Source: a virus | Taxonomy: Duplodnaviria > Caudoviricetes | Reading direction: 5' to 3' (one strand) | Length of the DNA stretch: 64,000 nt | IMG/VR virus record: IMGVR_UViG_3300021399_000005 | Coordinates: 64,001-128,000 of that record | Part shown: positions 22,969-57,745 of the stretch, piece after piece | Numbering within the stretch: the first letter of the stretch is position 1 | How the letters are laid out: each line of letters begins with the position of its first letter | Translations under genes and position numbers: made by a program | Notes under the pieces: model-generated | What the model was told of the DNA's origin: nothing | The model's database searches: none | What the model saw: the letters and a program-made list of their open reading frames with translations, nothing else

Positions 22969-24293
22969 TTTTTTCCCTTTCTTTTCTGTACTATTTTGTG
23001 CGTTAAATATTCTTGCCAACATTTCCAAGACTCCTTTTGTTTACAATTTTCACACCAATCATAATGTATGAAATCGTTTATTGATTCATATTGACATGGA
23101 GTCCCCAGGACTGACGCCAAATCTCTACTAATTGCTTCAATTATAACTTCAGCTTCCCAAGTATCGATTATACTATGTACTGAACTTAATAATATTTCTG
23201 ATTCTAATTTATTCATTATTCTTTTCCTTTTGCATACGCACAATAGAAATCTTCTGGTGGACAAAAAAGCGCTCCACTAAAACCCATAGGTTCTAAACAT
23301 AAGTCCAAATCTTCACTATGGCAATATTCTCCATCAAAATACTTACAATCTTTACATTGAATTAACTTTTCATGATACCAATATGTACCATATTCATCGT
23401 TGCGCAGAACTAAAATTTCTTTCATTCTTCTTCCCTTTCTGCTAAAACAAAATATGTATTATCTCTTAAGCATCTGATTTCATACCCAACATCAAGATAA
23501 CAAGGGCATTCCTCTCTTAAACATGGCATAAAGTATTCGTTGTAATAATATTCGCCAGCCACAGTTAATGAAGCTTTTTTCTCTCCATGTATACGAAATG
23601 GGCATGGTTTAATTTTTACCATTCTTCTTCTACCTCTTCAAAATCAAATAATTTTGGTTTATGTTCTTTGTATCCTCTGATAATTCCTATACATGGAACC
23701 AAAGGACACCGTGTATCCTTTTCGTTATTAATATGGTCATCAATCAATGGACATATCTTTTGTTCATCCCATTCCCAATATCCATCATCCTCTTCCCATT
23801 CAAACTCTTCAACTTTTAGAATGGGACATTCTTCGCATGATTTTGGCATTTCCATGTTTCTAATCGCTATCATTTTTTACCTCAATCAAAGGGCAATTTC
23901 TGTGCCGTTCTATTCTAACATCTGTACAATGACGACTTCCTAAATCACCTAAAAAAACGCAAGCAAGATTTTCCATTCCTAAATAAAAACTTAATGGACA
24001 ACATATACAACTATTAGGCATCTCTTCATTTATCGCTATCATTCAATATCTCCTTTATAGTTTGAATTGTCATTCACTAACCATGAGATAACATATTCAA
24101 GTACACTAGCAGTATTCTCTTCGTTATCAAAACTAATCATTAAAGAAATGTATTCATCTGCATCAAAGTTATTTAAATCTACTGCCACTTCAAATATATG
24201 TTTATCTTTTAAATCCATTCTCTTTATAACATGTATTGCTCTGATTGTATCAACATTAATCATTGTATTTCTTTGCATTAAAATCCGTTTCAT
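22965..24293 (-). other. six small hypothetical CDS (22965-23216, 23216-23425, 23422-23622, 23616-23873, 23860-24042, 24039-24293), several Cys-rich
   Basis: Overlapping start/stop packing; MPxSCxxCP..CPL motif in two of them. Confidence 0.6.
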
Positions 24294-24630
24294 TCTTTTT
24301 CTTTCCCCTATATGGTTCTGGCAATTCCATCCACGCTGTGACTTCTTCTCAGTCAAGATCGAAAGTGCTTTCCCAATAATCTCCTTGAAACGTTGCCGTA
24401 GCAACATAATTCATATCCATAGATACTAGTACGTATTGTCCTATTTCGGGTAATCTTTCGGTAATAGGAATCCATTCATTCGCTATTGGAAGGCTATCCA
24501 ACATTCGTTTAATCGCTACACATGCATTTCTATATCCCATGATTCCATATTCATTGTCTGTAAATGTGGACATTTCATTTAATTTTGCATCAATTCTAGC
24601 AACGGCTTCATCTGCGTCAATCAGTCTCAT
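24256..24630 (-). CDS. DUF551-like protein read through an internal TGA (Trp), 124 aa
   Basis: After TGA 24349-24351 the frame continues EEVTAWMELPEPY, completing the DUF551 motif, and stops at TAA 24256. Confidence 0.8.
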
Positions 24631-24867
24631 TTTATCTTTCCTTAATTATCTGTTCATTTTCAAATATAGATAAAGCATAATTACTGTACCAATCATATAT
24701 ATAGCAGTTATAATTACTTCATTCATTTATCTCACCCTAACACAGAACCAGAAAAGCTATAAATAGTATCAAAATTCGAACAACAATACCCCAATCTTCT
24801 GCTTTTTGCGCCCTATAGAAGATTGACCCAGCCATAGCACCAACAGTCATTCTTAATATGGTTTCAA

Positions 24868-25272
24868 TCATTCTTCTTCTCCTTCAGGTTTATATCCAAG
24901 CCATCCATAATGTTTTGCTACTACATCAAACTGTCTGTGATGATACCATCCATCATCGCCATCAAGATTAAGTCCATTCTCAAGTACTTTACACCATGCA
25001 TTAACAACCATAGCCATTAGCTCTGAAGATATACCTCGTTCATCTTCTGCTTTTTCATGTCCAAATTCAACATCTTCTTTCAATTGTGCAAGAACATTTT
25101 CCTCAGTCCACTCAAGAGGTGTATGTGTCGCCCCCTCTTTAAGATGAAATCCATATTTATCCCATTCATCAGATGGAAGAAAATCTAAAAATCTATTTGT
25201 CCATCTTTTATCAAGAAAATCATCTTCTTCAAATTCGTTATAATGTTCTTTAACATACTCTAATGTTTTCAT
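24868..25272 (-). CDS. conserved hypothetical phage protein
   Basis: 134-aa ORF with GAGG RBS. Confidence 0.7.
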   Translation of the reverse strand: MKTLEYVKEHYNEFEEDDFLDKRWTNRFLDFLPSDEWDKYGFHLKEGATHTPLEWTEENVLAQLKEDVEFGHEKAEDERGISSELMAMVVNAWCKVLENGLNLDGDDGWYHHRQFDVVAKHYGWLGYKPEGEEE

Positions 25273-25426
25273 TTTACTTTACCTCAAATGATAATAAAAT
25301 ATTACTCCAATTATTGTTATCACAAGAGAAATAATTAACAACCACCATTTCTCCTGTTCAATTGCATTTAATATAAGTTTTGTCATAAGGTATAAAAATG
25401 CTAAATAAACTATCAACGTTTCCATC

Positions 25427-25897
25427 TTATCTCACCTCAAACAAAGCCTTTACAATTCTCTTATTTCCGATTTGTTCACAAGCGTTAACCGCTTCTTCAT
25501 ATGAATCAAAATAAATAAACCCTTGGTACGGTTCACCCACTTCAAAACGTGTAGCTTGATTGTGTTTATCTAGCCGCAATATCCAATTCTCTCCACTTTT
25601 CTTAAACCATCTTCTACCACCATATTTGAGTAATAGAGTTTCAACTTTACGTCTTTCGACATCCCTTTCTGCATCTTCTTGAGTGAGAAATACATTCCCC
25701 ATGTCTCGTTCACCTTTGCAAGACTCATACCATGCATTAAACATAATAGCGCCATCAATATCAGTATAATAATACGTATCTCCATTTGGTAAATCCCAAA
25801 CTGTTGTAGCTTCAGGAGGTTCTAATTTTTCAATTAATTCATCTGATATGGTATATTCACCATATGTACTCATCAAATCTTTTATTTTTATTTTCAT
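25427..25897 (-). CDS. hypothetical protein, paralog of 26088..26573
   Basis: Shared VETLLLKYGGRRWFK..IYFDS..ALFEV. Confidence 0.7.
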   Translation of the reverse strand: MKIKIKDLMSTYGEYTISDELIEKLEPPEATTVWDLPNGDTYYYTDIDGAIMFNAWYESCKGERDMGNVFLTQEDAERDVERRKVETLLLKYGGRRWFKKSGENWILRLDKHNQATRFEVGEPYQGFIYFDSYEEAVNACEQIGNKRIVKALFEVR

Positions 25898-55692: not shown

Positions 55693-56450
55693 TCGATTTC
55701 TCCTTTCTCAGCAAGTATCGAAGCCAACGTAAAAGCGTTAAAACAATATTTACATTTTCCTATAGCGCATTTCTGTTGACAACCCAGTCTACGTTTGGAG
55801 ATCTCCGGATCGATTAAGCGCACAGGAACTGATTTATCTATATTACCATTCTTAATTAAAAGGGAGAAATCAGAAGTATAATTGGTTTCTCCAGAATAAA
55901 TTCTAAATAGAGTTTCCTCTTGAGTAGTATTTACTCCGTCAAATTCAATAGTAGAAAGATAAGGTTCATATAAAGGAAGGTCTCTCGGCAAAATCCAAGA
56001 ACCATCAATACCATTTTTTCTTTCAAAACCATCAGAATAGGCTACATTTGCGGCTACTCGATATGGTACCTCTTTGGGCAAGTCTTTAAGGTAGAAGAAA
56101 GCAGGAGCCGCCAACTTAATATAAGAAACTCCAAGAGCTATTGCCGCATTTACTTCATAAGGAGTCTTTAAAGAATAACCAAAATAGAACTTGGCATTAT
56201 GGGCTTTTGCTTCTTTTGCTGACTTAAAATTTGGTACAATTAAGTATAAACCTTTTTTTACTAATTTGGAGTATATCCTAAATTGTTCCCAATCTATTGG
56301 TTCGTCCTTAGGATTATCTATAAGGATTGCCGCATTAGGATATTTCTCTGCTATTGCGGGAACCTCATCGATTCTGCGCAAAGAGATTTTTATTTCATCT
56401 GCTTTTTCTAAATATGAATTAGAAAGGGTATAATGGACGCAGATTTTCAT
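55689..56450 (-). CDS. hypothetical protein (possible U32-like TIM barrel, C-terminal Cys cluster)
   Basis: RLGCQQKC..CKYC at the C-terminus. Confidence 0.5.
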   Translation of the reverse strand: MKICVHYTLSNSYLEKADEIKISLRRIDEVPAIAEKYPNAAILIDNPKDEPIDWEQFRIYSKLVKKGLYLIVPNFKSAKEAKAHNAKFYFGYSLKTPYEVNAAIALGVSYIKLAAPAFFYLKDLPKEVPYRVAANVAYSDGFERKNGIDGSWILPRDLPLYEPYLSTIEFDGVNTTQEETLFRIYSGETNYTSDFSLLIKNGNIDKSVPVRLIDPEISKRRLGCQQKCAIGKCKYCFNAFTLASILAEKGEIE

Positions 56451-56499
56451 ATCTTTTACACTTCCTTTCTTTTTCTATATATATTATATCATAAAAATA

Positions 56500-56990
56500 A
56501 AAATTTTTCAAGTAGAAGATTTTTGTGGGGAGAATAAATTGTTCCCGTTTTAAAAACTAAAGCGGAAAAAATTCGGGAACAAGAGGGTTGAGTCTAGGTT
56601 TGGAGAGAAATATCCCGAATTTTTTTCTCTTAGGATTTTGAGATGGGATAAAGAGGCCAAAGGCTTGGTTTGGAGAGAAAGTTCACGATTTTTTTCCGTC
56701 CGTAATATAAAATAAATCGTGAAAAAGAAGATAGGGGTCTAGATAAAAAGATCTCCAAAGCAGTGTTCGCGCAAATAAAAGTTTCTATTAAAGTAATGAG
56801 TTTTTCCATCAATTTTTGGGGTCTTATATTAATAGTATAAGGGGACGAAAATTAGTGGAAAAAGAGATTAAAAGTAATAGGAAGAAAAGCGAGTAATCAA
56901 AAGTACCCCATTTTTTTCCGTCCGTATATATATTATTCTCTTACAGCCGGAAAAAAAAGGGGGCCTTTTGATTAAAAATTTTGGGTAAAA
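56500..56990. repeat. origin-like non-coding region with short direct repeats
   Basis: GGTTTGGAGAGAAA x2, TTTTTTCCGTCCGTA x2, AAAGTAAT repeats; purine skew reverses here. Confidence 0.45.
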
Positions 56991-57046
56991 TTAGTTAAAA
57001 GTTCACAAAGAAATCTCAAGATATACGAAATAGAAAGGAGGATACT

Positions 57047-57745
57047 ATGGAAAAGTATAGTAGAGAAGAAATTGCGCAGTTGTATTTCAATACCTCGGCC
57101 AATAACTTTTCAAGAAAGAAAGAGCGTTATTTAAACCATTTATCAGAGTATTATGAATGACATATGGAGGGGCGCAATTATGTTTTAGATAAAGAGTTAA
57201 AGCCTTGAGAACCTTTAAGAAGAGGTCGTCCTAAAACTGGAGATCAAATTCAAGAAGATTATATTAAAGCTCTCCATGAGATAGTAGATAACGACCCTGC
57301 GCAAAAGTTAAATTCTGGGGCGAATTTAACTAGAAACGCCAAAGCTAAGAATCCTAACCAAATTTGCACTAGATATAACCATCAGGAGGATACTATGAGT
57401 AGATATTTTTGTAAAGGTATTACCAAAGAATTCCCTATGTCTGAAAAAGTTTGGGTAAAGAAAAAGAACGATTTTGAGTATGAACTTTTGTCTGAGGAAG
57501 AACAGACTTATTTGACTGGTTTGATTGTGGATAGATACCCGGATAATAAGATTTCTTTATTATCGGTTGATGAATTGATGGCGTATAACCAAAAAGAGAT
57601 TTCAAAAAAGGAATTGAATAAGAAAATTTCTGAACGTATTGAGGAAGAAAGTCGAAACTTTTATACTTGTATTATTAAAAAGTTTAAAGACAAGTATGGA
57701 TTTATTCCTATCAGAGCGAAGAATTTAGAAGCGAGTGCGTTTTAG
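57047..57745 (+). CDS. only clear plus-strand gene, 232 aa with two TGA-Trp codons; putative DNA-binding/initiator protein
   Basis: AGAAAGGAGG RBS before ATG 57047, in frame with ORF 57395..57745; ..EYYEWHMEG..LKPWEPLRRGRPK. Confidence 0.7.

Follow-up and report, generated by a model that had tools for sequence, protein, structure and literature searches.

Does a phage whose replication genes keep to the standard genetic code read TGA as tryptophan in its other genes and, if so, with what decoder? This question is raised by a 64,000-nucleotide stretch of Caudoviricetes DNA (hereafter, the window) that comprises bases 64001-128000 of the IMG/VR virus record IMGVR_UViG_3300021399_000005. The record is 166,804 bp long, has direct terminal repeats, is rated complete, and has a GC content of ~32%. 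An earlier note on the window had reported in-frame TGA codons in five genes and their absence from the large replication enzymes, and had proposed that TGA encodes Trp and, as a translational gate, silences these genes until a phage-supplied decoder is available. Having extended the analysis to the whole record, we consider it likely that this is a two-regime phage, with standard-code early genes, TGA-bearing late genes, and decoding by a tRNA with anticodon UCA, tRNA(UCA), whose gene is split by an intron.

TGA corresponds to tryptophan in the recoded genes

When we listed open reading frames (ORFs) with translation tables 4 and 11, the in-frame TGA codons of all five named genes were reproduced, with the counts claimed for them. 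These genes, together with a short ORF that the earlier note had called a probable sixth, are:

24256-24630, minus strand: DUF551 gene (Pfam DUF551, E = 1.6e-11); one sense TGA, codon 94 (24349-24351), and 3 TGG
33206-33679, minus strand: gene for a small secreted or membrane-anchored protein ending in ...TDYYVNW, previously labeled "3D-like"; 2 TGA
40363-41106, minus strand: free-standing HNH homing-type endonuclease gene, within the tRNA array; TGA at codons 87, 107, 133, and 223, and 1 TGG
44707-44934, minus strand: 75-codon ORF, the "probable sixth"; one TGA, codon 48
51742-54108, minus strand: gene for a 788-aa protein of unknown family, previously labeled "tailspike-like"; 8 sense TGA and 1 TGG
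57047-57745, plus strand: gene for a 232-aa protein, function unknown; TGA at codons 38 and 54, and 1 TGG

The proposal that TGA encodes Trp was borne out by alignments, as the homolog columns opposite TGA were strongly enriched for Trp. For the gene at 57047-57745, both TGA columns contain Trp in all four full-length homologs. One homolog (L017) has TGG opposite TGA38, and another (L018) has TGA opposite the gene's own TGG136. The ...TDYYVNW gene starts at 33679 or 33688, with the ribosome-binding site favoring 33679. One of its TGA codons falls in the signal or anchor segment (33665-33667) and the other is the last sense codon (33209-33211), which is followed by TAG. The family has 730 homologs, and the C-terminal residue opposite the last TGA is Trp in 21 of the 24 that were aligned.

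The Pfam match of the DUF551 gene extends across TGA94, a column with Trp in ~15 of 24 homologs. Downstream of this codon lie the family-invariant residues A99, W100, P104, and P106, as well as the nearly invariant Y107. Since this conserved motif lies past the TGA, a functional protein should need readthrough.

For the HNH gene, Pfam HNH matches were weak, and homologs were present in 217 phage records. We compared it with homologs written in the standard code, drawn from cultured phages and including its own TGA-free paralog. Trp was opposite TGA107 in six of six sequences and opposite TGA223 in three of five. At TGA133, two of six had Trp and the others included Tyr and Phe. At TGA87, where the column is not conserved, Trp was found in none of six.

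The 788-aa protein had no match in the GenBank phage collection. We identified two homologs, each of which also requires TGA to be Trp. At the codon level, the homolog with 36% identity has TGG opposite TGA281 and TGA opposite TGA470, TGA744, and TGA746, while the relative with 95% identity has TGA opposite the gene's own TGG698. The 75-codon ORF matched nothing in Pfam, and the GenBank phage collection contained no homolog of it. Neither Pfam, PHROG, nor NCBIfam backed the names "tailspike-like" and "3D-like".

We also compared TGA codons across the genome. Of 97 TGA codons compared with relatives that are 96-97% identical in nucleotide sequence, 94 were retained; TGG codons had changed five times, four times to TGA. 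Indeed, TGG to TGA is the main change between close relatives, also in genes that are TGA-free here. In a diverged relative, the codons opposite our phage's TGA were TGA seven times, TGG four times, and another codon twice. Paralog columns, including the hallmark Trp positions of LamG, were all TGA. Judged by these comparisons, TGA stands for Trp in the recoded genes.

Some table-4 ORFs were rejected. An extension of the 788-aa ORF to 54408 is a spurious 5′ extension, with the homologs (786 and 764 aa) starting at 54108. ORFs at 26875-27267, 37129-37446, 44916-45110, 45259-45528, 48496-49041, and 54109-54408 were judged to be artefacts, being either 5′ extensions or ORFs that overlie tRNA genes. 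At ORF 58376-58756, no gene is called in the relative.

The two coding regimes extend across the genome

The standard-code regime is represented in the window by one long module:

1-20673, minus strand: replication/early module, standard code; 28 genes with 0 in-frame TGA and 89 TGG

As had been claimed for the replication enzymes, the module is free of in-frame TGA; Pfam matches in this module include a DnaB-like helicase, AAA_24, NAD ligase, GyrA, GyrB, and a methylase. About 10 early genes terminate with TGA, and in these the next stop is at most 12 codons further on.

The two regimes that the earlier note described were upheld in the window, whereas their scope had been underestimated: the early/late split runs genome-wide, and the window contains only its fringe. 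When genes were re-called with tables 11 and 4, a comparison suggested in that note, coding density was 0.76 with table 11 and 0.90 with table 4, and mean ORF length was 143 and 236 aa, respectively. In bins covering 0-50 kb of the genome, table 4 increased density from 0.57-0.75 to 0.94-0.99. Counting all genes of at least 100 aa genome-wide, plus-strand late genes contain 231 internal TGA and 118 TGG, compared to 38 TGA and 244 TGG in minus-strand early genes (Fisher p = 4e-43), and many of the 38 fall in doubtful ORFs. Use of TGA is thus selective by gene class, as had been supposed. When TGA and TGG are added together, their frequency is 1.47 per 100 codons in the late block and the early block alike. 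The two blocks match in Trp frequency only with TGA included, which points independently to TGA as Trp. Independent assemblies span the regime boundaries, indicating that the record is no chimera.

The plus-strand block runs from 138 kb, across the terminal repeat, to 50 kb. Its products include terminase, portal, baseplate Gp10_C, tail lysozyme, GH25, and LamG-type fibre proteins. Late genes are up to 2832 aa long, with 15-21 TGA apiece. The first late gene contains three TGA codons; its "sigma factor" label derives from one PHROG family, with Pfam and NCBIfam silent. In the late block, TGA makes up about two thirds (0.67) of Trp codons, and the A-ending share of other NNA/NNG pairs in late genes is 0.82-0.91. 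Early genes favor other A-ending codons by ~4 to 1, yet they have no sense TGA.

Beyond the window, four adjacent late genes (genome 145673-148750, plus strand), including a YonB-like putative major capsid gene, have no TGA among their 11 Trp codons. This TGA-free capsid gene and its three neighbors point to selection on TGA use and suggest a cost of UGA decoding where expression is high.

A predicted tRNA(UCA) gene is interrupted by a probable group I intron

Default tRNA scans of the genome detected no tRNA with anticodon UCA. Using intron-aware ARAGORN and Rfam, we located a tRNA(UCA) gene at genome 50252-50537 (plus strand), 13.5 kb before the window and directly after the lysis genes; the mature tRNA is a prediction. 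This gene is a candidate for the phage-supplied decoder that the earlier note had postulated. That note had suggested searching the remaining genome for a tRNA(UCA) or a release factor, and only the former was found: the genome search revealed no other UCA tRNA, no release factor gene, and no gene for tryptophanyl-tRNA synthetase (TrpRS).

The two tRNA halves flank a probable group I intron (Rfam RF00028, E = 6e-10 for the genome, 40 bits compared to a gathering cut-off of 50). We placed the 211-nt intron between U34 and C35, the only junction at which the 5′ splice site follows a U and the intron terminates in G. When joined, the exons form a canonical 75-nt cloverleaf, which both default ARAGORN and RNAfold (minimum-energy structure) predict, and the anticodon loop reads CU-UCA-AC. 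The split tRNA carries the set of bacterial tRNA-Trp identity elements (PMC9976931), consisting of G73, A1-U72, G3-C70, G4-C69, G5-C68, C35, and A36, with C34 alone changed to U. We rejected the junction chosen by ARAGORN, which gives a 192-nt intron at 35/36 and a long variable arm. The "exon" that it defines contains a covarying P9 GNRA hairpin and differs from lineage to lineage.

A second lineage of TGA-recoded phage, represented by a 176-kb contig, contains the same split gene in the same syntenic place, and a third variant was found in metagenome contigs. In all three variants, the exons are identical up to both junctions, save for a compensatory change of U2-A71 to G2-C71, and the intron varies beside the junctions. 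The second lineage has G2-C71 in addition to the Trp identity set. In a structure drawn from these three sequences, 57 pairs are 99.4% paired, with seven compensatory changes compared to none in slid controls. Six of these changes lie inside the intron, and one is in the acceptor stem, across the intron. Within the intron, P3 to P9 can be drawn. The gene is flanked by a promoter-like site (10/12) and a strong terminator-like hairpin.

The tRNA-plus-intron had no relative in the GenBank phage collection. A 17-mer search returned six matches in GC-rich contigs, which we judged to be chance, and relaxed ARAGORN thresholds yielded noise only. The literature that we searched contained no report of an intron-split suppressor tRNA, and the gene described here appears to be a new variant.

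RNA genes and a promoter in the window

The window contains a tRNA array and other elements that bear on decoding:

39566-50126, minus strand: tRNA array; 24 tRNAs by ARAGORN, plus tRNA-Phe(GAA) and an intron-bearing tRNA-Leu(UAA)
39650-39722, minus strand: tRNA-Phe(GAA) with an unusual T loop; Rfam 45 bits, missed by default ARAGORN
46146-47002, minus strand: tRNA-Leu(UAA), split at 34/35 (CUU / AAAA) by a 771-nt intron ending in G
41961-42036, minus strand: aberrant tRNA-like element; anticodon loop CU-CCA-AA, 6-bp D stem with a 4-nt loop, 9-nt linker after the acceptor, extended acceptor
38839-39143, minus strand: phage transfer-messenger RNA (tmRNA); Rfam 64.7 bits, above cut-off, missed by ARAGORN
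43329-44501, minus strand: RtcB RNA ligase gene, within the tRNA array; no TGA
41132-41161, minus strand: perfect sigma-70 consensus promoter (TTGACA, 18 nt, TG-TATAAT; 12/12), 26 nt 5′ of the HNH start

No tRNA with anticodon UCA was detected in the array. The intron of tRNA-Leu(UAA), which received no score from the Rfam group I model, contains a TGA-free HNH ORF (46294-46806), a paralog with 40% identity to the recoded HNH endonuclease. For the tRNA-like element, the best Rfam match was tRNA-Sec at 28.5 bits, below the cut-off, and the minimum-energy fold was cloverleaf-like (z = -2.1). The tmRNA tag reading frame is AKNIFSKIKNIFSFNNFSLSALAA, followed by UAG; this RNA could matter if the suppressor sends ribosomes through the UGA stops of host genes. 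The promoter was identified as a consensus match only.

The host very probably uses the standard code

Since early genes never contain sense TGA despite the low GC content, and since ~10 of them end in TGA, the host very probably reads the standard code and does not read UGA as Trp. The phage encodes peptidoglycan hydrolases (GH25, a tail lysozyme, and endolysin-like proteins), indicating that the host has a cell wall. Relatives of the portal infect Enterococcus, Bacillus, and Clostridia, which likewise favors a host with a wall and the standard code.

The best full-length relative of the GH25 lysin is on NZ_CAKVMR010000001.1, a 156-kb contig binned as Holdemanella. At this locus, coding density increases from 0.70 to 0.81 with table 4. 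This contig may thus represent a further recoded phage and not host sequence.

Decoder supply could make translation conditional

In the two-regime phage that we envisage, early and replication genes, which would need to be translated by a naive standard-code host, are free of sense TGA, and TGA accounts for about two thirds of the Trp codons in the structural and lysis block. A few genes set among the early ones likewise use TGA, in the window the HNH, 788-aa, ...YYVNW, and DUF551 genes and the gene at 57047-57745. UGA would be read by the phage tRNA, which joins anticodon UCA to a tRNA-Trp body. Before messages containing TGA could be read, the intron would have to be spliced out and the tRNA charged by the host TrpRS, and translation of the TGA genes would hence be conditional on build-up of the decoder. 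We infer splicing, charging with Trp, the standard-code host, and decoder-dependent translation from sequence features. Such dependence may be a timer under selection or a by-product that is merely tolerated. Gating by TGA, as put forward in the earlier note, is plausible for at least the HNH gene, whose four TGA codons lie behind a perfect consensus promoter.

Several observations weigh against this explanation. The RF00028 match falls short of its gathering cut-off. In the best-conserved register of P1, a conserved GAAG can pair with the exon CUU, and U34 then faces an A, not the canonical G, unless one A is bulged. The covariation comes from three distinct sequences, the same ones from which the structure was drawn. 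The nearest relatives of the lysin are in Erysipelotrichales and Clostridia assemblies, a mixed set of Bacillota with Erysipelotrichales best, although this is a hint only. Some TGA codons, such as the last codon of the ...YYVNW gene, cannot act as gates, and the TGA share of Trp codons in late genes is near that expected from AT-biased drift.

These last two points form part of the case for passive drift without a gate, a credible alternative to which we give appreciable, if minority, weight. With a suppressor available late in infection, the two Trp codons would become synonymous in genes needed only at that stage, AT bias would turn TGG into TGA there, and purifying selection would keep the early genes clean, such that the pattern would be a consequence of timing and not its regulator. 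With a share of 0.67, TGA would be approaching the equilibrium of the other NNA/NNG pairs (0.82-0.91), and the predominance of TGG to TGA changes among close relatives, even where the gene of this phage lacks TGA, fits this process. Drift was also proposed as the origin of recoding by Borges et al. (10.1101/2021.08.26.457843). However, for the HNH gene, with its 12/12 promoter and four TGA codons, translation looks limiting, and homing endonucleases are recoded both here and in Agate phages. The absence of TGA from the YonB-like capsid gene and its three neighbors indicates that TGA use is not purely neutral, and even under drift, the TGA codons would still tie translation to the decoder.

A host that uses code 4 (Mycoplasma type) and so decodes UGA as Trp, with no switch at all, is very improbable. 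The low GC content would fit such a host, as would the lysin relatives from Erysipelotrichales, a lineage near the Mollicutes. However, unlike a genome that uses code 4 throughout, this phage has no TGA and 89 TGG in its 28 early window genes, despite the strong preference for A-ending codons, and ~10 early genes end in TGA. The cell wall implied by the GH25, tail lysozyme, and endolysin-like proteins also argues against a code-4 host, as does the phage's possession of its own UCA tRNA.

UGA could be read in another way. A tRNA-Trp(CCA) can acquire the ability to read UGA through a mutation in its body, as in the Hirsh suppressor. The odd CCA-anticodon element in the array could be an equivalent, or host tRNA-Trp could read UGA as a near-cognate codon, and splicing of the UCA tRNA is only predicted. 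We regard these routes as unlikely. The CCA element is below every Rfam cut-off, with non-canonical acceptor, linker, and T-arm geometry, and is not needed to explain decoding. Moreover, 231 TGA codons in essential structural genes demand efficient decoding, and the UCA tRNA exons are conserved, with a compensatory acceptor-stem change, in related recoded phages. Pseudogenes, assembly errors, or TGA encoding Sec or Gly would account for the in-frame stops taken alone, and their likelihood is close to negligible. The in-frame TGA codons are conserved at 36% protein identity and interchange with TGG, Trp frequency is equal between the blocks only when TGA is counted, independent assemblies agree, and the columns contain Trp or aromatics and not Gly or Cys.

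If the two-regime explanation with an intron-split decoder is correct, RNA processing could itself time the code switch, although we find this doubtful. The supply of decoder would then hang on self-splicing of the intron and so on guanosine, Mg2+, or folding conditions. The decoder would license the first late gene and the virion, lysis, and homing endonuclease genes, and the tmRNA would handle ribosomes that run past host UGA stops.

Relationship to known recoded phages and split tRNAs

Late-biased recoding of TGA to Trp has been described for the Jade, Sapphire, and Agate clades (Borges et al., 10.1101/2021.08.26.457843) and for zeta crAss-like phages (Yutin et al., PMC7886860). In the model of Borges et al. 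(10.1101/2021.08.26.457843), recoded stops restrain late and lytic genes until the suppressor is made. As in those gut and rumen phages, structural and lysis genes of our phage use TGA as Trp and early and replication genes keep the standard code; also shared are low GC, a recoded homing endonuclease, a suppressor tRNA gene (here a predicted one) beside the lysis genes, and a presumed reliance on host TrpRS. Unlike in those phages, the predicted suppressor is split by a probable group I intron and so is missed by default tRNA finders, no "code change module" of release factor and TrpRS was found in the genome, and the capsid and portal are of the SPbeta/YonB type. By its portal, the nearest named relative is phAss-1 (34% identity), a large Bacillota phage of the Phassvirus group (PMC10607447). 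Both phages have recoded virion genes and phage suppressor tRNAs, but in phAss-1 it is TAG that is recoded, to Gln, and the tRNA(CUA) genes are intact, whereas our phage recodes TGA to Trp.

The recoding itself therefore adds one more lineage to a known phenomenon, and sample names suggest that this lineage, with its SPbeta-type capsid and portal, is from the ruminant gut. Gene callers that use table 11 will shred its late genes. A suppressor was detected in only 35% of code-4 phages, and non-canonical tRNAs were suspected of escaping detection (10.1101/2021.08.26.457843; PMC7886860). Decoding in ~2/3 of code-4 phages was thus left unexplained by surveys, and here a suppressor is predicted to be present yet concealed by a group I intron. 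Should such split suppressors prove common, the apparent absence of suppressors from most recoded phages would be explained. Recoded phages without a detectable suppressor could be re-scanned at scale with intron-aware tRNA searches. With one tRNA gene and neither release factor nor synthetase found, the phage also offers a compact system for asking if recoding times late translation.

The classic group I intron of cyanobacterial and plastid tRNA-Leu(UAA) interrupts the anticodon loop between positions 34 and 35. The predicted tRNA(UCA) gene resembles it in the 34/35 insertion, the U before the 5′ splice site, the intron-final G, and a predicted, conserved group I core, and the same genome holds a tRNA-Leu(UAA) that likewise has an intron at 34/35 (window 46146-47002). 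It differs from the cyanobacterial and plastid case in that the split gene is a Trp-type stop suppressor, in a phage, and has a P1 without an obvious U-G pair.

Other features of the genome

Beyond the window, we found a weak second group I match (22 bits) at genome 54888-55768 (minus strand), beside a GIY-YIG-like ORF with three TGA and no TGG. A paralog of this ORF, at genome 56453-57175, has no TGA. Near the right end of the window and just beyond it, four paralogs of 110-150 aa with 56-69% mutual identity form a cassette-like array:

58781-59242, minus strand: first paralog
60763-61113, minus strand: second paralog
63022-63354, minus strand: third paralog
genome 128331-128669, minus strand: fourth paralog

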